From positions 64,001 through 128,000 of the IMG/VR virus record IMGVR_UViG_3300045988_145033: 64,000 bases of DNA. One strand, written 5' to 3'. Both the position numbers and the translations under genes were made by a program. The DNA comes from a virus. The notes under the pieces were generated by a model, which ran no database searches, was not told the DNA's origin, and saw only the letters and a list, made by a program, of their open reading frames with translations. Shown here in pieces: positions 7,138 through 50,336 of the stretch (position 1 is the first letter of the stretch; every line of letters starts with the position of its first letter).

Positions 7138-7138
7138 A

Positions 7139-7157
7139 TGGTGGCGTGACGCCACCA
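7139..7157. terminator. Bidirectional terminator TGGTGGCG-tga-CGCCACCA
   Basis: Perfect 8-bp stem between convergent stops at 7137 (+) and 7160 (-), with A/T runs on both sides. Confidence 0.7.
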
Positions 7158-7159
7158 TA

Positions 7160-7471
7160 TTATTCTTCGACTAAATCAGCATTTGACTTATCTAAATCAA
7201 ATCCAGCATCTTTTAATACTCTTTTTAAAAACTCGTATCTTTCTAAATCAAACTTATCTAAAAAGCCTTCATCTTCGTTTCTTATTTCCATAGCATCAAG
7301 TACCCCTCTTACAACAGCTTGTCCAGCTATTTGAAATTCTGTATAGGGCAGTTGTTCTAGTGATTCTACAATAGTTGCTACAAGAGTAGTTATCTGCGAT
7401 AGAAGTCTTACATCGAACTTATGATTTATTTTTGTTGCTTGTGATGGCATATTAAAAACGTCCAGTTTCAT
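7160..7471 (-). CDS. Hypothetical acidic protein (103 aa)
   Basis: ORF with RBS AAGGAGAGTG. Last gene of the micro-protein operon. Confidence 0.6.
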   Translation of the reverse strand: MKLDVFNMPSQATKINHKFDVRLLSQITTLVATIVESLEQLPYTEFQIAGQAVVRGVLDAMEIRNEDEGFLDKFDLERYEFLKRVLKDAGFDLDKSNADLVEE

Positions 7472-7527
7472 AGTTATTTCACTCTCCTTAAAAAAAATAA
7501 AGGATGTGCAGTCCCTTATCTTTTGGT

Positions 7528-7626
7528 TTATAGACTTATGATAATAAGAACTACTACCATAAATCCAAGTCCGACAGTTACTACTTGGACTTCACTGTCA
7601 GACAAAATTGATTTTAAGTGTTTCAT
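7528..7626 (-). CDS. Micro-protein (~32 aa), single transmembrane helix: MKHLKSILSDSEVQVVTVGLGFMVVVLIIISL
   Basis: Its ATG overlaps the upstream stop in an ATGA arrangement. The hydrophobic C-terminal half is clear. Not in the track because it is under 60 aa. Confidence 0.45.
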   Translation of the reverse strand: MKHLKSILSDSEVQVVTVGLGFMVVVLIIISL

Positions 7627-7733
7627 ATTCTACCTCCCATAATCGCGTGTGCGATAGAATACAAAATTATTAGGACAATGATGATAAATACTGAAAACAT
7701 CTTGTCCTCTAAATCTAAATGTGGGGCTTTCAT
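7623..7733 (-). CDS. Micro-protein (~36 aa), single TM helix: MKAPHLDLEDKMFSVFIIIVLIILYSIAHAIMGGRI
   Basis: ATGA overlaps at both ends, indicating translational coupling with its neighbours. Confidence 0.45.
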   Translation of the reverse strand: MKAPHLDLEDKMFSVFIIIVLIILYSIAHAIMGGRI

Positions 7734-7984
7734 ATAGTCCACCCCACTACAATTAAACTAGCAAAGAATGCACATACAGAAAACAAACCGAAGTACATTT
7801 GTTTTCTTATTGCATCCTTTCTTTTACGAGCTACTATTTTTCTTCTAATAGCTCTATTCGCTCTGCATTCTTCAGAATGTTGATATGCAGAACGAGCTTT
7901 GTTGTAATTGGCATTTATTTCTTTTTCAAAAGGAACGTCTAGTCTCACTAGAACCACGCTCCTTTCATTGAAGCTATTGCACAA
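7730..7984 (-). CDS. Small tail-anchored membrane protein (84 aa or shorter) with a very basic N-terminus (RRKIVARKRKDAIRK) and a C-terminal TM helix
   Basis: Track ORF. Its stop is coupled (ATGA) to the next peptide. The true start may be internal. Confidence 0.55.
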   Translation of the reverse strand: MCNSFNERSVVLVRLDVPFEKEINANYNKARSAYQHSEECRANRAIRRKIVARKRKDAIRKQMYFGLFSVCAFFASLIVVGWTI

Positions 7985-8091
7985 GCAATTATTGCTATAG
8001 CAAAAGCTCCTAAAGAGATGATAGTACCATAAATGGTATCTAACTCTCTTTCTCTTTCCTTGTTATAAATTTTCTTTTCTTTCTTTTTCAT
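7948..8091 (-). CDS. Micro-protein (~47 aa): MKKKEKKIYNKERERELDTIYGTIISLGAFAIAIIACAIASMKGAWF (charged N-terminus plus TM helix)
   Basis: ATG at ~8091 with GGGAGGTAAAACT RBS, directly downstream of early module A. Confidence 0.45.
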   Translation of the reverse strand: MKKKEKKIYNKERERELDTIYGTIISLGAFAIAIIACAIASMKGAWF

Positions 8092-8092
8092 A

Positions 8093-8190
8093 GTTTTACC
8101 TCCCAAGGTATTAAATTTAGACGTCGGAACTCTTAAGCCCTCTTAAGTTTATTCCTTATCTCTACTTTTATTATATATAATTGAAATGAA
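8093..8190 (-). promoter_or_regulatory. Early-type promoter/leader module A (TTTCAATTATATATAATAAAAGTAGAGATAAGGAATAAAC ... hairpin CTTAAG-aggg-CTTAAG ... AAATTTAATACC-RBS)
   Basis: One of four near-identical ~100-nt copies (plus two degenerate ones), each directly upstream of an RBS. Contains a TATAAT-like box. Confidence 0.55.
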
Positions 8191-8203
8191 AAATGCAGAT
8201 ATT

Positions 8204-8713
8204 TTACAACTTTTTCTCAAGAGTTGCTTTAAATGATTTTGTACGTTCCTTTTCCTTATATCCAAGCTTCTCATATAGACTTCTCGCTTCGGTATTAAAG
8301 TCGTACACATCTAGCGATATAGTATTACAACCCTTTTCTTTAGCATAAACCGATGCTACATTCATAAGACGAGTCGCAACACCTTTTCCTCTTGCTTCAG
8401 GGGTTGTCCATAATGCACGAATATAACAAGTTCTCTTTTCTCTATCAGCTCTTATTTCTATAAATCCTACATAGACTGAACTTATAGAAGTCTTAAGAGA
8501 TGCTAGAAATACTGTACTATAATGAGTCTTAAAATCCTCTTTTATTCTATCAAGAAGGTCTCCCTCATCTTCTAAAGGAAAGGATACTCTATCAGCGTGA
8601 TACTTATATATTGCGTGATGAAATTTTAATAGTGTATCGCTATCTTTTATATTTGCTTCCCTTATTACTATTCTCTCAATCATATCATTTTGTGCTTCAC
8701 CGTATAATATCAT
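8204..8713 (-). CDS. GNAT-family N-acetyltransferase (169 aa)
   Basis: Acetyl-CoA-binding motif ALWTTPEARGKGVATRLM and a typical ~170-aa GNAT layout. Local GC is visibly higher than its surroundings. Confidence 0.7.
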   Translation of the reverse strand: MILYGEAQNDMIERIVIREANIKDSDTLLKFHHAIYKYHADRVSFPLEDEGDLLDRIKEDFKTHYSTVFLASLKTSISSVYVGFIEIRADREKRTCYIRALWTTPEARGKGVATRLMNVASVYAKEKGCNTISLDVYDFNTEARSLYEKLGYKEKERTKSFKATLEKKL

Positions 8714-8721
8714 AATATCAC

Positions 8722-9285
8722 CTAAAATATCTTGTCTTTATAAAAAGACATTCTTTCTCTTAATATATCAGCATACTTTGTAGAATATTCTTTTTGCTTA
8801 TCTACAAGCTCTTTTTCTTTTTTGTCCATTTTAAACCAATCATCAGAACGTAAGAAAGTTTCAAGTGCTACAACTCTTACAGATATTTCATTATACTCTT
8901 CTTCCAGTTTTTTAACTTTCTTTTTATACTCTTCATTATCGGCTTTCATTTTAGTTCTATCTTCGCTATCATAAGATAAAGATATTTGCTTCACTTCATT
9001 TATATTAGCTATAAGATTTATCATCTCATCAGCTATTATACCCTTTTGCTCTTCCGTTAGCTTTACATTGTGAACTTCATCTTTTTCACAGTTATTTTCT
9101 ATTACAGATGATATAGCAGATGATAGTTTAGTAGCATTTTCTTCACCTTTTATAAACTTTGCTATTTTAGCATCTTTCTTTAAATCCTTTTTTACATAAT
9201 CACTTACTGCGATTATAAGTCCATTTATCTTTTTCTTTTCAAGTCCTTTATTTATTATAACCTTTAATTCATTTTTATCTGCCAT
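8722..9285 (-). CDS. Hypothetical coiled-coil protein (187 aa)
   Basis: ORF with AAGGAGG RBS. K/E-rich heptad-like sequence. Confidence 0.65.
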   Translation of the reverse strand: MADKNELKVIINKGLEKKKINGLIIAVSDYVKKDLKKDAKIAKFIKGEENATKLSSAISSVIENNCEKDEVHNVKLTEEQKGIIADEMINLIANINEVKQISLSYDSEDRTKMKADNEEYKKKVKKLEEEYNEISVRVVALETFLRSDDWFKMDKKEKELVDKQKEYSTKYADILRERMSFYKDKIF

Positions 9286-9302: not shown

Positions 9303-9446
9303 TAATTAAAACTCGTCTATCTTTATTGTATTTTGTATAAGTTTATTTTTACCTTTACTTTCCTTTAAAAGAGTAGAACCTTTTATAAATTTCTTATTTT
9401 CTTTACTCTGTTCTAATAAGCCTAACTTCTTTTTATATTTGCTCAT
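9303..9446 (-). CDS. Small basic protein (~47 aa): MSKYKKKLGLLEQSKENKKF...
   Basis: ATG with AAAAAGGAGACAGT RBS, between a terminator and 8722..9285. Confidence 0.35.
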
Positions 9447-16172: not shown

Positions 16173-17027
16173 CTATTTGCTGATAACTGAACCTTCAGGA
16201 ACTATTTTATTTCTGTCTTGTCCCATTATAAGTTCAAAACCTATGCTATTTAATACATATAATGCAACTTCATCTTCATTGTACGAAGTTTTCATTTCAC
16301 ACAATATGTCAGTTAAATACTTTGTAGCCCCTTGGAACGCAGATATCGAGTTCATATCCACAACTACTGTAACTCCATTTAAAGCATCATAGCTATTTAT
16401 AAACTTTGCCATATCAGGACCTTCATAATCAAGTCTTACAACTTTAGCCTTGATATTCTTAGTCTTTTGTAAGAATATATCATTACTTACTTGATATGAA
16501 GTTATGAACAAAACTTCTTCTTCCTTTTTGACTTCCTCTTCGGTTTTCATAAGATAAGCTTGACCTAAATCCTTTGCATTCCAGTCAGGTCTTGAGAACT
16601 CTCTTGATGCTGGGATATATTTTAAACTTGCTATAAATCCACAAATTTCATTTAATCCTTGCATAACGGCATCATCTTTAACATTGTATCTGTCAAGAAA
16701 TTCTTCCATGATATGTTTAGGTACATACTTGTCAGCTAGTACAGGTAAATCAGGTAAAGCATCTATATTGTGCTCTACTATACTATCTATTAATTCCTTT
16801 AAAGAATATTCTTTAACATGTCCTACAGCTTTACCATCTTCAAATCTTTGAAGTTGTACAAATCCTCCATTTGTATTCCAAGTTGTTATAGCTGTGAATG
16901 TTTGATAAATTCCTTTATCATTTACCTTACCAATTTTTCCAGTCATGATGTCCATAAGTCCATCGAGCATATCTTCCACACCTATAACAATTCCAAATCC
17001 TATTCCTTTTACTTCTTTTTTGTTCAT
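16173..17027 (-). CDS. Hypothetical protein (284 aa)
   Basis: ORF with AAAGGAGG RBS, preceded by degenerate early module E. Confidence 0.7.
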   Translation of the reverse strand: MNKKEVKGIGFGIVIGVEDMLDGLMDIMTGKIGKVNDKGIYQTFTAITTWNTNGGFVQLQRFEDGKAVGHVKEYSLKELIDSIVEHNIDALPDLPVLADKYVPKHIMEEFLDRYNVKDDAVMQGLNEICGFIASLKYIPASREFSRPDWNAKDLGQAYLMKTEEEVKKEEEVLFITSYQVSNDIFLQKTKNIKAKVVRLDYEGPDMAKFINSYDALNGVTVVVDMNSISAFQGATKYLTDILCEMKTSYNEDEVALYVLNSIGFELIMGQDRNKIVPEGSVISK

Positions 17028-17100
17028 TTTTGAACCTCCTTTAAATTTTAAATTTTAGCATCTAGTTATTCCTATTGCTAGGTTTATAATATATAAGAAA
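17028..17100 (-). promoter_or_regulatory. Degenerate early-type module E (TTATATATTATAAACCTAGCAATAGGAATAAC...AAATTTAAAATTTAAAGGAGG), lacking the hairpin
   Basis: Shares TATATAT-TATAA, GGAATAAC and AAATTTAAAAT blocks with modules A-D. Confidence 0.35.
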
Positions 17101-21692: not shown

Positions 21693-24485
21693 ATGGAAAT
21701 ATTTAATATAGATAAATTCATAAGAGCAAGACAAGTAAAAGAAGTTACGACAACTAACCTCTTTCTCGCATCAGGTTCACCAGACCCTGAAGGACTTGTA
21801 TCTCAAGTTATATTTGGTACGTCTACAATAGATAGACAATCAAGATATGGGTATATACAACTTCATGGAAAGTTTATGCACCCTATAATATACAAAAGAA
21901 TATTTAAAAGAAGTTATAGAAAGATAGACGGTATTATAGCTGGAACTGATTACTATAATATTACTGAAAAGGGAGAACTTGTAAAAGACCCCGAAGGATA
22001 TACTGGACTTGAATGGCTTTATAAGAATTTTGAGAGAATAAAGTTTCAGAATATAAATTTAGAAGAAGATGGTGATGATATAGAACTATCTTTATTTAAA
22101 GAGGACGTAAGAGCAGTTATGAAGAAATATACAAAGGACCAGTTATTTATTGATAAGATTATAGTTATACCTATAGCTTATCGTGATATAGATATAAGAG
22201 ACGGTCAAATGGGTATTGATGAGCTTAACTCTTTATATCGTTCTATTATGAATAAAGCTAGAATGCTACAAGATAATAAGAATGTAAAACTGTTTGATTT
22301 GAATAGGCTTATGTTTCAGATGCAACTACAGATAGCTCAACTATCTGACCACTACAAAGCTATAATAAGTGGTAAGTATGGACTTCAAAGAAAAAGAGCA
22401 CTATCTAAAAACGTTGACTATGGTTCAATAGTTGTATTATCAGGACACGAGTTTGACGGAGATAAGTTTTATGATGAAAAGGTAAATGTTGATAAAACAG
22501 GTTTCCCTTTAACTGCTATAGTTACTAATATGCAATTATTTATAATACGTAGAGTAGAAGATTTCTTAAGACAACTTCCTATGACAAAGAAAAATGGTGA
22601 GCAGTTCTCTTTAAGAGAAAAGGAAATGTATTATGACGGTGAGAAGATAAAGGAATACATACAAACTTATGCTCACTCTATATCAGAAAGATTTAACTTT
22701 GTTGAAACTCCAGACGGTGGTAATGTTACTTTCACATATAAAGTAGCTGGAAAAGAAAAGACAAGATTTATGACAATAACTGACGTTTTGTATATGTTTG
22801 CTTATAGTGAAGCTGAGCTTGCAGAACGTCATATGCTTATAACACGTCACCCTACTATGGATAGCTTTAACGTTATACCTACGCTTATTCACGTTCTATC
22901 TACTATTAAGACAATAGAAGTCGAAGCGTATGGTATGAAATATCCTTACTATCCCGATATAGATTATATCTTTGATAAGTATGGAGATTTAAGAGTAAGA
23001 GAAAATGCAATAAAGGCAGAAAGAGAATTATCAGGTTACTTTACAGAATCTGAAAAGATATCCACTTTACAACTTGAGGGAATGGACGGAGACTTAGACG
23101 GAGATAAAAATATAGCAAGACCGGTATTTTCAGATGAAGCCAACGAAGAATGCAGGCAAAAAAGAGAGGCACTTGCGTCACACTTTAATATGAGAATGGA
23201 GAATATGAAGATACTTGGAACTGATAGTGTACAAGCTTTATATTCATTTACAGTATTTAGAAAAGACGCACCTTATGCTAAACCTGCTACAATAGAAAAG
23301 TTAAAGAATGCTAAATCAGATGATATTACTGTAACTTATTTATTTAAAGAACTAAGACTTGCAGATACTACTAAATTTAAAAGAGAAAATGATATAAGAG
23401 ATTTAATACCTATTAAAAATGGTGAGTTTGGTTATAAAGGAAAAGATACAGTTTGTACAATAGGACAATTCATAGCTTGGAAGCTTTTATTTGAAGATTG
23501 TAAAATACCAATTCTTACAGAAGTTCTAACTAAGAAAGTCATAGAAAGAACTTTTACAGAAATAGGAGTTAAGATACAACATAAAGAAATTACAATAGAC
23601 GATTTCAAGAAATGTGTAAATAGATATGAAGCGTTCTCACTTCGTATGACTTCATTTGTAAATCCTTCTGTATCAACTGAAATGCTTATTCTTACACCAG
23701 AGATAAGAGAATTAAAATCGAAACTTATAGAAGAAAATAAAGCTGGTATTGAAGCTAATGACCCATATGCCGCTGCTAAGGTTGAAAAGCCACTAATTGA
23801 TAAAGTAGAAGAAGTGTATGGAGATAAACCTGAAATGGAAACTTATCGTTCAGGGGTTGTAACTCTTGATAATAACTATAAGGTACTTGCACTTATGGCA
23901 GGAGCACTACCACAAGATGAAGACTTCAATAAGTTTAAAGTAGTTACAGATTCTTTATCAGACGGACTACAAAAGAAAGACTTATCTTACTTTGGTAATA
24001 TGGGACTTGTGGGTGGATACTCAAGAGGTAAAGCACCAGAAGTCGGTGGAGCTATGGCAAAACTTGCAGGGTATGTGTATCAAACTATGAGACTTGATAA
24101 GTTTGGTACTGATTGTGGAACGAAAGTATATTGTGAAATATATGTAGACCCTAAAGCAGAAGTTGAATATTATGGAAGATATGTTCCTGAAGGGAATGAG
24201 CTTGTAATGATAACTAAAGAAAACTTCTCAAAATATGCTGGAAAGAAAGTTCCTATGCGTTCAGTTCTAACTTGTAAGACACCTCTTGTATGCAATAAAT
24301 GTGCAGGAGATGGAATATACAATATCTTAGGAATATATGATAGACCTGTAGATTTCGGACTTAAGCTTAATAAACAACAGCACGAGCTTGTACAAAAGAG
24401 ACTTAAACTTTCTCACGATACTTCAGTTAAATTCAAGCACTTAGATTTTGACTGTATAGTACCTAGTAAGAAGAAAGGAAAATAG
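21693..24485 (+). CDS. Multisubunit RNA polymerase beta-prime N-terminal-half-like subunit (930 aa), a split RNAP subunit
   Basis: RYGYIQLHGKFMHPIIYKRIF resembles ERMGHIELAAPVAHIWF. VIPIAYRDIDIRDG resembles the VLPVLPPDLRP motif. SGKYGLQRKRALSKNVDYGSIVV resembles [24 protein letters not shown]. The catalytic loop reads DGDLDGD in place of NADFDGD. Confidence 0.7.
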   Translation: MEIFNIDKFIRARQVKEVTTTNLFLASGSPDPEGLVSQVIFGTSTIDRQSRYGYIQLHGKFMHPIIYKRIFKRSYRKIDGIIAGTDYYNITEKGELVKDPEGYTGLEWLYKNFERIKFQNINLEEDGDDIELSLFKEDVRAVMKKYTKDQLFIDKIIVIPIAYRDIDIRDGQMGIDELNSLYRSIMNKARMLQDNKNVKLFDLNRLMFQMQLQIAQLSDHYKAIISGKYGLQRKRALSKNVDYGSIVVLSGHEFDGDKFYDEKVNVDKTGFPLTAIVTNMQLFIIRRVEDFLRQLPMTKKNGEQFSLREKEMYYDGEKIKEYIQTYAHSISERFNFVETPDGGNVTFTYKVAGKEKTRFMTITDVLYMFAYSEAELAERHMLITRHPTMDSFNVIPTLIHVLSTIKTIEVEAYGMKYPYYPDIDYIFDKYGDLRVRENAIKAERELSGYFTESEKISTLQLEGMDGDLDGDKNIARPVFSDEANEECRQKREALASHFNMRMENMKILGTDSVQALYSFTVFRKDAPYAKPATIEKLKNAKSDDITVTYLFKELRLADTTKFKRENDIRDLIPIKNGEFGYKGKDTVCTIGQFIAWKLLFEDCKIPILTEVLTKKVIERTFTEIGVKIQHKEITIDDFKKCVNRYEAFSLRMTSFVNPSVSTEMLILTPEIRELKSKLIEENKAGIEANDPYAAAKVEKPLIDKVEEVYGDKPEMETYRSGVVTLDNNYKVLALMAGALPQDEDFNKFKVVTDSLSDGLQKKDLSYFGNMGLVGGYSRGKAPEVGGAMAKLAGYVYQTMRLDKFGTDCGTKVYCEIYVDPKAEVEYYGRYVPEGNELVMITKENFSKYAGKKVPMRSVLTCKTPLVCNKCAGDGIYNILGIYDRPVDFGLKLNKQQHELVQKRLKLSHDTSVKFKHLDFDCIVPSKKKGK

Positions 24486-37857: not shown

Positions 37858-38292
37858 TTATTTCTTTCTTCTGTAAAGAGGTTGGTTTGTTCCTTCCTCT
37901 CTAAGTTGGTCCTTACTTCTTATGTATTCATAGAACCCTTTATGCTTGAAGTCAGCCTTTTTAGTAACTGACCCATCAGGGTTTTGAGTTTCTGTTACAA
38001 TTCTTTCTGAATAAGCATAGAAGCAAGGTATCCATGAGTTAAGGTCCAAACAAATCACATTTACTGCTGGTGGGAATCCAGCTACGTGTATTGCTGTACA
38101 GAAGTTTTGTTCCATGTAGTCAATAACATCATTGCAGACATATAAGTAATTGTCTGGTGTCATTTGACTCCAAGCTTTTTTCAATTCTTCACTCAATTCC
38201 ACAACTTGGTATCCCTTTTCAGCAAGTTCTTGGATTTGATTAAGACCTAATACGTGATTTGAGCAGTTTAACAAGTTTTCTAATTTTTTCAT
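37858..38292 (-). CDS. Hypothetical early protein (144 aa)
   Basis: Immediately downstream of early module B, with a TAGGAGG RBS. Confidence 0.7.
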   Translation of the reverse strand: MKKLENLLNCSNHVLGLNQIQELAEKGYQVVELSEELKKAWSQMTPDNYLYVCNDVIDYMEQNFCTAIHVAGFPPAVNVICLDLNSWIPCFYAYSERIVTETQNPDGSVTKKADFKHKGFYEYIRSKDQLREEGTNQPLYRRKK

Positions 38293-38396
38293 TTTTGTAC
38301 CTCCTAGTACGGTTATTTTAAATTAAGACTATTTGGAACTCCTGAGCCTTCTCAGGTTTATTCCTTTTGTCTACGTTTATTATATATAATTGAAAT
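38293..38396 (-). promoter_or_regulatory. Early-type promoter/leader module B (hairpin CCTGAG-aagg-CTCAGG)
   Basis: Near-identical to modules A, C and D. The stem sequence differs, but base pairing is preserved. Confidence 0.55.
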
Positions 38397-47039: not shown

Positions 47040-47156
47040 AATATCATTCCTCCTTTTAATTTTAAATTAAGACATTATTGCCTTTTAATATTATTTATTA
47101 CTATAGTTATTATATATAATCAAATGCAAAAATTCGTAGGAGCATAAAAAAAATAA

Positions 47157-47186: not shown

Positions 47187-47438
47187 TTAGATTTTAGTCA
47201 CAGTAATAAATGCAGAGAATATGACAGTATTGTTACCGCTGTCATAAGTTGATGAATATTGTATTTGCGGAATACCATTATATCCATCATTCTTGAATTT
47301 ACAAACCATTTCCAAAACTAAATCTGTTAAAGGAGTTGCCCCCTTTTCAGAAGATGTCCAAACGTGTCCCATACAAACATCTCCTCTCATTTCTCTTTCC
47401 AATCTGTCTCCAATAGTTTCATTAAATAATGTAGTCAT
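47187..47438 (-). CDS. Hypothetical early protein (83 aa)
   Basis: Directly downstream of early module C. Confidence 0.65.
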   Translation of the reverse strand: MTTLFNETIGDRLEREMRGDVCMGHVWTSSEKGATPLTDLVLEMVCKFKNDGYNGIPQIQYSSTYDSGNNTVIFSAFITVTKI

Positions 47439-47536
47439 TTTAAACCTCCTCAGGTATTTTAAATTTTGGCATTAAGAACTCTCAACCCTTGTTAAGTTTA
47501 TTCTCTTGCTCTTACTTTTATTATATATAATTGAAA
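47439..47536 (-). promoter_or_regulatory. Early-type promoter/leader module C (hairpin CTTAAC-aagg-GTTGAG with a G-U pair)
   Basis: Near-identical to A, B and D. Confidence 0.55.
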
Positions 47537-47583
47537 ATAAAAATTACGTAACTTCTTCTAGGAACATAGAAAAAAAAAATAAA

Positions 47584-47602
47584 GGTGAGGATAAACCCCA
47601 CC
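47584..47602 (-). terminator. Terminator GGTGAGG-ataaa-CCCCACC (conserved module)
   Basis: Same module as at ~37831 and ~49980. Confidence 0.65.
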
Positions 47603-47612
47603 AATATCTTTA

Positions 47613-49867: not shown

Positions 49868-49979
49868 AGAATTTACCTCCTTTAAATTTTTATTTGACTT
49901 TGGCTTGATTGCCTTGTCTTATGTATATAATATATAGCTTATTATAAGAATGCTGTGGAACGTAGAAAAAAAAAATAAA

Positions 49980-49998
49980 GGTGAGGATAAACCCCACC
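49980..49998 (-). terminator. Terminator GGTGAGG-ataaa-CCCCACC (conserved module GGAACGTAGAAAAAAAAAATAAAGGTGAGG...)
   Basis: Third copy of the module, after the stop of 50008..50241. Confidence 0.65.
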
Positions 49999-50007
49999 AA
50001 TATTCTT

Positions 50008-50241
50008 TTATTCATTTAAAGTTAATCTGCGTTTTAGAAGATATATATAATCTTCTAAGATTTTAATATCTGTAGAGAAGTCTTCTCCAAGATATTTATT
50101 TTTTATTGGTGCGTCTGGATTATGTATCCAGTTTGAAGCCTTCATTTGTTCTGAGACTTCTCCTTTCTTTAGTGCAAACAGTCTTCCTTCGGCTGTTTTA
50201 ATTTTGTTTTGGATTACTTCGATTTCTTTTTTATTTAACAT
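50008..50241 (-). CDS. Hypothetical early protein (77 aa)
   Basis: Directly downstream of early module D. Confidence 0.65.
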   Translation of the reverse strand: MLNKKEIEVIQNKIKTAEGRLFALKKGEVSEQMKASNWIHNPDAPIKNKYLGEDFSTDIKILEDYIYLLKRRLTLNE

Positions 50242-50336
50242 ATTATCTACCTCCTCAGGTATTAAATTTAGACGTCGGAATTCTCAACCCTTGTTAAGTT
50301 TATTCCTTATCTCTACATTTATTATATATAATTGAA
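50242..50336 (-). promoter_or_regulatory. Early-type promoter/leader module D (hairpin CTTAAC-aagg-GTTGAG). The most similar copy to module A.
   Basis: GGTATTAAATTTAGACGTCGGAA is shared verbatim with module A. Confidence 0.55.

Follow-up and report, generated by a model that had tools for sequence, protein, structure and literature searches.

Do four very short reading frames, placed head to tail in a large bacteriophage genome, encode real proteins, and if so, what would a set of single-helix membrane peptides do for the phage? This question is raised by a locus at positions 7,528 to 8,713 of a 64,000-nucleotide (nt) stretch of viral DNA (IMG/VR record IMGVR_UViG_3300045988_145033, positions 64,001 to 128,000), hereafter called the window. 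The locus contains four micro-protein genes, designated mp1 to mp4, and upstream of them on the same, minus, strand a gene for an acetyltransferase of the GNAT superfamily. An original prediction, made from the letters of the window, had described four consecutive small open reading frames (ORFs) with a GNAT of 169 amino acids (aa) upstream, and both the coordinates and the Pfam match of the GNAT (PF00583, E = 3e-19) agreed with that description. The window belongs to the myophages of Fusobacterium nucleatum typified by JD-Fnp1, JD-Fnp4, JD-Fnp6, and JD-Fnp7, a family with genomes of ~180 kb, at 81–88% nucleotide identity, and the same region is carried on many human-metagenome contigs of 175–183 kb.

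Coding status and modularity of the micro-protein genes

The region extending from the promoter to the next gene was taken from 32 loci, among which there were 29 distinct sequences; scans of IMG/VR and of metagenomes with the 103-aa product of the downstream neighbor as anchor yielded only 3 and 6 loci, respectively, and searches for exact protein matches were more fruitful. The original prediction had named frame disruption in close relatives as evidence against the small ORFs, and no such disruption was seen: all 29 distinct versions had intact mp ORFs, and every junction overlap was preserved. By the Nei-Gojobori method, the ratios of nonsynonymous to synonymous substitution rates (dN/dS) were 0.23 for mp1, 0.22 for mp2, 0.07 for mp3, and 0.35 for mp4, at dS values of 0.5–0.95, whereas the two shifted frames of the same genes gave ratios of 0.8–11 and contained 2–8 stop codons per sequence. 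The dN values of mp1, mp2, and mp4 were 5–10 times those of the flanking genes, with purifying selection retained; the G+C content (GC) of the mp genes was 31–35%. Each peptide had one hydrophobic segment, the best 17-aa Kyte-Doolittle windows scoring 2.3–2.9, in agreement with the single hydrophobic helix that had been proposed for each.

The junctions between the genes bore out most of the earlier description. At the mp2/mp3 and mp3/mp4 junctions, start and stop codons overlapped in the sequence ATGA (7733–7730 and 7626–7623), as predicted, but the third predicted ATGA, at the mp1/mp2 junction, proved to be TAGTG in the window, a 1-nt overlap, and TAATG in all relatives. The start codon of mp2 in the window is the GTG at position 7948, and the equivalent codon is ATG in 28 of the 29 versions; gene callers returned an exact match of 72 aa for mp2 and 27 clusters of homologues, all of 71–72 aa. 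The proposed sizes of 47, 36, and 32 aa for mp1, mp3, and mp4 stood, while that of 84 aa for mp2 did not, as it had been counted from a TTG codon inside mp1. The Shine-Dalgarno sites of mp2, mp3, and mp4 were formed by the last codons of the preceding gene, AAAGGAGCGTGG for KGAWF, GGGGTGG for VGWTI, and GGGAGGT for MGGRI, an arrangement which is predicted by translational coupling and which partly explains the conserved C-termini of the upstream genes. These sites and the invariant overlaps sustain the view of the four genes as a translationally coupled chain of single-helix membrane micro-proteins.

We concluded from these comparisons that the four ORFs are real, selectively maintained genes. 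The alternative, that they are chance ORFs in AT-rich intergenic DNA, would account for their very short lengths, for the fact that most gene callers pass over mp3 and mp4, and for the Ile, Leu, and Phe codons that such DNA readily gives, but it is effectively refuted by the comparative data and retains a negligible probability, given that no ORF was disrupted at dS values of up to 0.95, that purifying selection was confined to the annotated frame, that overlaps and Shine-Dalgarno sites were conserved, and that the deletions described below were clean and in frame.

The mp2 peptide consists of a basic helix of ~45 residues, with the invariant motif H24-S-E-x-C28, followed by a C-terminal transmembrane (TM) helix; its invariant residues are N14, H24, S25, E26, C28, N31, R32, R35, K37, R43, and K44. 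AlphaFold2 (AF2) modeled it as a single continuous helix from residue 8 to residue 71 (pLDDT 81), and because the basic stretch lies directly N-terminal of the TM helix, a cytoplasmic location is expected for the long helix. The mp3 gene was the most constrained of the four, yet it was lineage-specific, being absent from JD-Fnp1-type and distant relatives; mp4 was present in every relative. A possible lipobox in mp1 (IIAC) was rejected, as neither the JD-Fnp1-type nor the distant mp1 retained it.

Across relatives the chain was found in three architectures. The full order mp1-mp2-mp3-mp4 is that of the window and was shown by 19 of the 29 versions. JD-Fnp4, JD-Fnp6, JD-Fnp7, and three contigs had mp2-mp3-mp4; the JD-Fnp4/6/7-type in-frame deletion joins codons 1–3 of mp1 to mp2, so that mp2 takes over the Shine-Dalgarno site of the leader. 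JD-Fnp1 and three others had mp1-mp2-mp4, in which the same ATGA overlap joins mp4 directly to mp2 and the N-terminus of mp4 is a different allele. The insertions and deletions of mp1 and mp3 were located at the ATGA/ATG junctions, not at the promoter cassette. A divergent lineage from oral metagenomes, whose mp2 counterpart was found only by profile search (E = 1e-4), showed complete synteny: genes for 842-aa and 223-aa proteins, the GNAT, the promoter and hairpin, mp1', mp2', mp4', a terminator, a gene for a 104-aa protein, and DNA polymerase. As this lineage has mp1'-mp2'-mp4', mp3 looks like a later gain. In tblastn searches, mp2 compared against phages matched only JD-Fnp phages, mp3 matched only JD-Fnp4, JD-Fnp6, and JD-Fnp7, and mp4 compared against phages gave no match, probably owing to the low-complexity filter. 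Judging from the distribution of the genes, we take the constant elements to be mp4 and the N-terminal domain of mp2, with mp1 dispensable.

The chain is followed by a probable intrinsic terminator, with a folding energy of −10.7 kcal/mol (z = −1.8), which was kept in relatives; the distant lineage has a stronger GC hairpin and a T11 run at the same place. With its promoter, 5' hairpin, Shine-Dalgarno site, four overlapping genes, and terminator, the locus is a self-contained transcription unit (Table 1).

Table 1. Features of the micro-protein locus and related elements in the window
Feature	Position	Strand	Basis
GNAT acetyltransferase, 169 aa	8204..8713	-	Pfam PF00583
Spacer, GNAT to mp1	112 nt	-	sequence
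Repeated AT-rich promoter motif TTCAATTATATATAATAAA, probable early promoter	8167..8185	-	recurrence in window and JD-Fnp4
Three-tier 5'-leader hairpin, GGAAU/GUUCC around CUUAAG-AGGG-CUUAAG	8118..8164	-	RNAfold, covariation
Shine-Dalgarno GGGAGG of mp1; site of mp2 in lineages without mp1	8099..8104	-	sequence, alignment
mp1, 47 aa: charged N-terminus, one predicted TM helix, conserved KGAWF end	7948..8091	-	
mp2, 72 aa, GTG start: predicted basic cytoplasmic helix and C-terminal TM helix	7730..7948	-	
mp3, 36 aa: one predicted TM helix	7623..7733	-	
mp4, 32 aa: conserved D-S/G-E-x-Q motif, predicted C-terminal TM helix	7528..7626	-	
Probable intrinsic terminator of the operon: A/U-flanked hairpin and T8 run	7490..7524	-	folding, conservation
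103-aa gene downstream of terminator	7160..7471	-	
Sequestin-domain gene, 187 aa, 8-nt gap to GNAT	8722..9285	-	PF21825
46-aa very basic ORF (MSKYKKKLGLLEQSKENKK...), between terminator of 219-aa gene and Sequestin-domain gene	9306..9446	-	
Promoter-leader module copies	8085..8185, 38287..38394, 47433..47535, 50236..50336	-	
Promoter-leader module, weaker copy	17022..17096	-	
Hairpin-less module variant	47106..47124	-	
930-aa protein like RNA polymerase beta subunit	21693..24485	+	PHROG

Beyond the 103-aa gene we observed a perfect 9-bp GC-rich palindrome, ATGGTGGCG-TGA-CGCCACCAT, at 7138..7158, between that gene and a convergent gene for a 347-aa protein on the plus strand; it probably acts as a bidirectional terminator.

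The repeated promoter and its leader hairpin

The 19-mer upstream of mp1, TTCAATTATATATAATAAA, occurred in the window as four exact copies and one copy with three mismatches, compared with 0.53 expected, and in JD-Fnp4 as seven exact copies, each ~90 nt upstream of a start codon. It forms part of a module of ~95 nt that was repeated whole, consisting of the 19-mer promoter, GUAGA, a three-tier hairpin, AAUUUAA, and GGAGG. Folding with RNAfold gave the same hairpin architecture in 13 of 13 copies, with a conserved ARGG loop, and a covariance model detected 24 copies across the searched loci, with 5 for the window and 10 for JD-Fnp4. In the hairpin alignment, which was fitted to the model, 96% of the cells were paired and 8 of the 11 pairs showed double compensatory changes; all tiers showed some compensatory changes, and in the inner helix all six pairs did so. 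This degree of covariation was not reached in any of 500 shuffles, and sliding the partners lowered the pairing to 23–53%. The leader was 90% identical between relatives, compared with 72–85% for the coding parts. An Rfam scan of the locus, the hairpin included, gave no match. The leader module may control mRNA stability or translation.

No conserved element was found in the −35 region between the promoter copies, and a scan for the sigma70 consensus gave 22 sites where 22.1 were expected, that is, no enrichment. As the −35 position was not conserved, the motif is better read as something other than a canonical host promoter. The motif preceded small ORFans and operons with genes for RNA polymerase (RNAP) subunits (JDFnp4_26-27 and JDFnp4_120-124), not structural genes. 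Five RNAP genes are annotated in JD-Fnp4, and the window encodes a 930-aa protein with two PHROG matches to the beta subunit of phage RNAP (1e-51 and 3e-47), nothing in Pfam, and nothing in the PDB by sequence; these matches mark it as a highly diverged RNAP of the multisubunit type, in a phage whose 180 kb fall under the usual "jumbo" size limit. In all RNAP-encoding jumbo phages that have been studied, motifs of this conserved, AT-rich kind serve the virion RNAP as early promoters (PMC7598289). The repetition of an AT-rich motif, the presence of phage RNAP genes, this analogy, and the kinds of genes that the motif precedes make its designation as an early promoter, already proposed in the original prediction, a reasonable one. 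We consider it likely, by analogy with these phages, that TTCAATTATATATAATAAA is an early promoter, and the promoter-leader module probably defines an early regulon of the phage family.

The motif resembles the early promoters of virion RNAPs (PMC7598289) in being a single conserved AT-rich block just upstream of the start site, in its lack of a conserved −35 element, in being findable by bioinformatics, and in its position upstream of what would be early operons. It is a phage-specific AT-rich block of at least ~10 nt near −10, repeated in a phage with a multisubunit RNAP, as are promoters of that type. It differs from them in that its sequence is specific to this phage family, and its perfect TATAAT would also suit host sigma70.

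The module can also be compared with the PeSL cassettes of T4-type phages, in which a terminator stem-loop is followed by an early sigma70 promoter (PMC2839356, PMC4122927). Both are short, conserved regulatory cassettes that recur genome-wide beside small variable genes, where modular exchange could plausibly take place. In contrast to the PeSLs, the conserved stem-loop of the present module comes after the promoter, within the 5' untranslated region, has three tiers and an ARGG loop, and is accompanied by a fixed spacer and a Shine-Dalgarno site, all in a phage with its own RNAPs. The promoter copies at 47535 and 47124 have a terminator upstream. After two small genes, at ~47540..47604 and 49930..50015 on the minus strand, we observed a near-identical terminator-like element (GC hairpin, CCTCACC, and T10), which appears in translation as one spurious ORF peptide common to both places, VGFILTFIFFFYVP; combined with the promoter module, the element forms composites of terminator and promoter that recall the PeSLs of T4-type phages.

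A further observation concerns JD-Fnp4, in which an unannotated 22-aa hydrophobic ORF (MFAAVLVLTAYAVAAIWTITKL) at 132757..132825 (L007 32757..32825) lies under a shortened form of the promoter and leader. A second copy, this one full, follows just downstream of the ORF and drives a radical-SAM activase-like gene. Early membrane micro-peptides may recur as a theme in this phage.

The GNAT and its accessory neighbors

The protein encoded upstream of the micro-protein operon is a bona fide member of the GNAT superfamily. Its PF00583 match scored 69.7 bits against a cut-off of 20.7, its AF2 model (pLDDT 86, pTM 0.81) had a beta-alpha topology with a Foldseek probability of 1.0 to many GNATs, and its acetyl-CoA (AcCoA) motif A (consensus R/Q-x-x-G-x-G/A), R108-G-K-G111-V-A113, was intact and invariant except for K110. 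The best profile matches in the PDB were BH1408 (1.5e-12), SSAT2, and the polyamine acetyltransferase DpA, and the closest solved proteins also include SpeG/PaiA and Nat-type enzymes. With the small-amine GNATs (BH1408, the thialysine/diamine acetyltransferase SSAT2, DpA, SpeG, and PaiA) it shares the fold, the size, and the AcCoA motif, but its identity to them is 13–23% and no curated family cut-off was reached. RimI, one of the classes named earlier for comparison and the best match in NCBIfam, was rejected, since the score for TIGR01575 was 47 bits and the cut-off is 86.4.

A GC content standing out from that of the surrounding DNA had been taken as a sign that the GNAT was acquired horizontally, and toxins of the AtaT/TacT type had been named among its possible kin; neither idea was supported. 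The GC of the gene was 33.5%, compared with 31.6 ± 2.4% for 50 ORFs of the window (z = 0.8, rank 10 of 50), and it contrasted only with that of the adjacent inserted gene, whose 27.1% was the lowest of the genes measured. The GNAT gene occupied the same position in every relative, the divergent lineage included, with a dN/dS of 0.057, and a search of 5.8 billion proteins found homologues only in this phage clade and no bacterial one. AtaT, TacT, KacT, and ItaT, which have a GNAT fold and small size in common with it, were found neither in the best 60 profile hits in the PDB, which extended to E = 0.046, nor in the top 50 Foldseek hits. Unlike the genes for these toxins, the GNAT gene has no ribbon-helix-helix (RHH)/DUF1778 antitoxin gene beside it, there being upstream the Sequestin-domain gene or, in the JD-Fnp phages, a terminator, and downstream the mp promoter; it is, moreover, fixed in the family under strong purifying selection. 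The pattern of conservation and the profile matches suggest that the GNAT is probably a separate, conserved core enzyme, a polyamine-like small-amine acetyltransferase.

The GNAT and the peptides could also be thought of as one functional module, either a toxin or modifier with its partners or substrates, or a system like AtaT/TacT. In every relative, divergent lineage included, the GNAT adjoins the operon, and no terminator lies between its stop codon and the mp promoter, but the region is wholly syntenic and the adjacency therefore carries no specific information, and the operon has its own promoter, which it has in common with unrelated genes. Considering also the lack of an antitoxin-like gene beside it, of the four toxins among the best PDB and Foldseek hits, and of a RimI match above the cut-off, we think a joint module highly improbable.

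The gene directly upstream of the GNAT encodes a 187-aa protein, of which residues 124–180 matched PF21825 (Sequestin) at 36.4 bits against a gathering cut-off of 24.8. Members of the Sequestin family sponge the Thoeris signal 3'cADPR, that is, they are anti-Thoeris proteins (bioRxiv 10.1101/2025.07.12.664507). The N-terminal ~120 residues of the 187-aa protein gave no matches, and since fusions of Sequestin with other sponge domains are common, they could be a new sponge domain. The gene was absent from JD-Fnp1, JD-Fnp4, JD-Fnp6, and JD-Fnp7 and from some metagenomic relatives. From its sequence comparisons, the slot upstream of the GNAT is one that collects accessory anti-defense cargo, with the GNAT, mp2, and mp4 as fixed residents. 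The earlier idea of an accessory island was right in flavor, in that the Sequestin-domain gene is variable and mp1 and mp3 are each missing in some lineages, but the block as a whole is not variable, the GNAT, mp2, and mp4 being fixed in every lineage with enough sequence. The small basic ORF that lies beyond the Sequestin-domain gene was present in most contigs with the 187-aa gene, was missing in L009, and has as its Shine-Dalgarno site the one that belongs to the GNAT in the JD-Fnp phages.

Possible functions of the micro-proteins

The reading that we favor, tentatively, is that the micro-proteins form an early inner-membrane complex active in phage-host or phage-phage conflict. We favor it on account of the fast dN of the peptides (5–10 times that of the flanks), the clean gain and loss of subunits, the anti-defense gene next door, and the probably early nature of the unit. 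We propose that the unit would be transcribed early, either by an injected virion RNAP or by the host RNAP, that the overlaps and internal Shine-Dalgarno sites would lead to co-translation in a roughly fixed ratio, and that the peptides would insert in the inner membrane and form a hetero-oligomer. The constant parts of this complex would be mp4 and the cytoplasmic helix of mp2, with its invariant His/Ser/Glu/Cys and Arg/Lys residues, and mp1 and mp3 would be exchangeable accessory subunits. The complex could serve in early remodeling or guarding of the host membrane, either to exclude superinfecting phages or to neutralize a membrane-acting defense.

The Imm and Sp proteins of T4 are early inner-membrane proteins of superinfection exclusion and are non-essential (Lu and Henning). 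Like them, the micro-proteins are small membrane proteins encoded by a large virulent myophage, are variable between relatives, and are presumably early; they differ in showing no sequence similarity to Imm and Sp, and in being encoded as a coupled chain of 32–72 aa, not as separate single genes of 83–97 aa.

Several points weigh against a conflict complex. The timing comes from analogy, and the topology and oligomerization from prediction. The four peptides and the 103-aa neighbor gave nothing usable in Pfam, PHROG, NCBIfam, or PADLOC, and a profile search with mp2 against 1.84 billion representatives returned four proteins, all from this phage clade; by these searches the peptides fall outside all described families and are restricted to one phage clade. 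The locus is surrounded by genes for structure and replication (baseplate-like, portal, and DNA polymerase), outside the small-gene arrays, and mp2 and mp4, being fixed in the family, behave as core and not as accessory genes. The Sequestin-domain gene carries little weight by association, since many relatives have the operon but lack that gene. In the short contig L042 (1..532), from a divergent relative, mp2 is cut to a soluble 46-aa form that keeps the N-terminal motif and has no TM helix, a terminator follows the truncated mp2, and mp4 then forms a separate unit; this arrangement counts against an obligatory mp2-mp4 membrane complex. L042 is a single low-coverage contig, so that misassembly or a pseudogene could account for it.

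A bolder proposal, which we regard as doubtful, is that the locus encodes an undescribed multi-subunit micro-protein complex that would be made in the opening minutes of infection and would protect the infection from within the inner membrane or an early vesicle, by keeping out rival phages or disabling a membrane-acting defense; it would belong to an early regulon of ~10 transcripts, all beginning with the covarying three-tier hairpin, which would be a new class of leader. The hairpin of this leader class would be read by a phage or host factor and would stabilize or gate the early mRNAs.

Alternatively, the peptides might be a lysis-timing module, namely a small holin, an antiholin, or a pinholin-like lesion former, or the regulator of one. 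No holin or endolysin is annotated in JD-Fnp1 and JD-Fnp4, for which the phage paper counted 0 and 1 "cell lysis" ORFs, and holins and antiholins (classes I–III and pinholins) are, like the micro-proteins, small and fast-evolving phage membrane proteins that are often translationally linked with partners; single-helix peptides made in fixed ratios would fit such a role. Moreover, holin genes of large phages need not adjoin the endolysin gene; in T4 the holin gene t lies apart from the endolysin gene e. Against a role in lysis, the promoter appears to be of an early class and is common to non-structural ORFans, no muralytic gene was found within several kb, and no holin family was matched in Pfam or PHROG even at E ≤ 0.1. 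The peptides also lack a dual-start motif and the charged C-terminal tail typical of holins, ending 0–6 residues past the helix (KGAWF, GWTI, MGGRI, and IISL), and we think a lysis module unlikely. Spanins (i-, o-, and u-) were rejected as candidates, since the TM helices are C-terminal with no periplasmic domain and the IIAC sequence of mp1 is unconserved.

A second alternative to the conflict complex is a host shut-off toxin, in which the peptides would depolarize or permeabilize the membrane early in infection in the manner of Hok, Fst, or TisB. Peptides of 32–47 aa with a single hydrophobic helix do resemble membrane-active toxin peptides, and their expression is probably early. This idea is made improbable by the set of four coupled peptides and the conserved, polar, 45-residue helix of mp2, which exceed the needs of a simple pore former, by the harm that early depolarization would presumably do to a phage with a long and energy-demanding cycle, and by the finding of no antisense RNA or other toxin-control feature and no Rfam or toxin-family match.

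Finally, the peptides might anchor or organize an early phage compartment or the replication machinery at the membrane, the models being the early-infection vesicle proteins of the Chimalliviridae and the membrane tethering of phage DNA by p16.7 of phi29. The phage encodes multisubunit RNAPs, as do the vesicle- and nucleus-forming jumbo phages, and early vesicle-anchored proteins exist in the Chimalliviridae; mp2 is modeled as a tail-anchored, long basic helix that would face the cytoplasm, and mp2 and mp4 are fixed core genes near the DNA polymerase gene. We nevertheless judge this role quite unlikely: no chimallin or other nucleus marker turned up, the Pfam scan, which covered only ten large JD-Fnp4 proteins, being empty; the genome is of 180 kb, with baseplate genes annotated as T4-like; and rapid divergence and loss of subunits would be unusual for a structural organizer.

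Early phage cassettes of small membrane proteins already have precedent as a kind; what is new here is the four-gene coupled chain with its exchangeable subunits and, above all, the covarying hairpin of the shared leader. The correction of the GNAT removes the false lead of a horizontally acquired toxin. Phages of Fusobacterium nucleatum are under development against a bacterium linked to colorectal cancer, and in the JD-Fnp1/4 family more than 80% of the genes are unannotated, two of the four micro-protein genes being among those that most gene callers miss. As real, selected, and modular membrane peptides, the mp products are candidates for handling the host envelope, rival phages, or host defenses, and the promoter and hairpin leader that they share with other genes mark a probable early regulon and offer a testable RNA element of use in transcript mapping and engineering.

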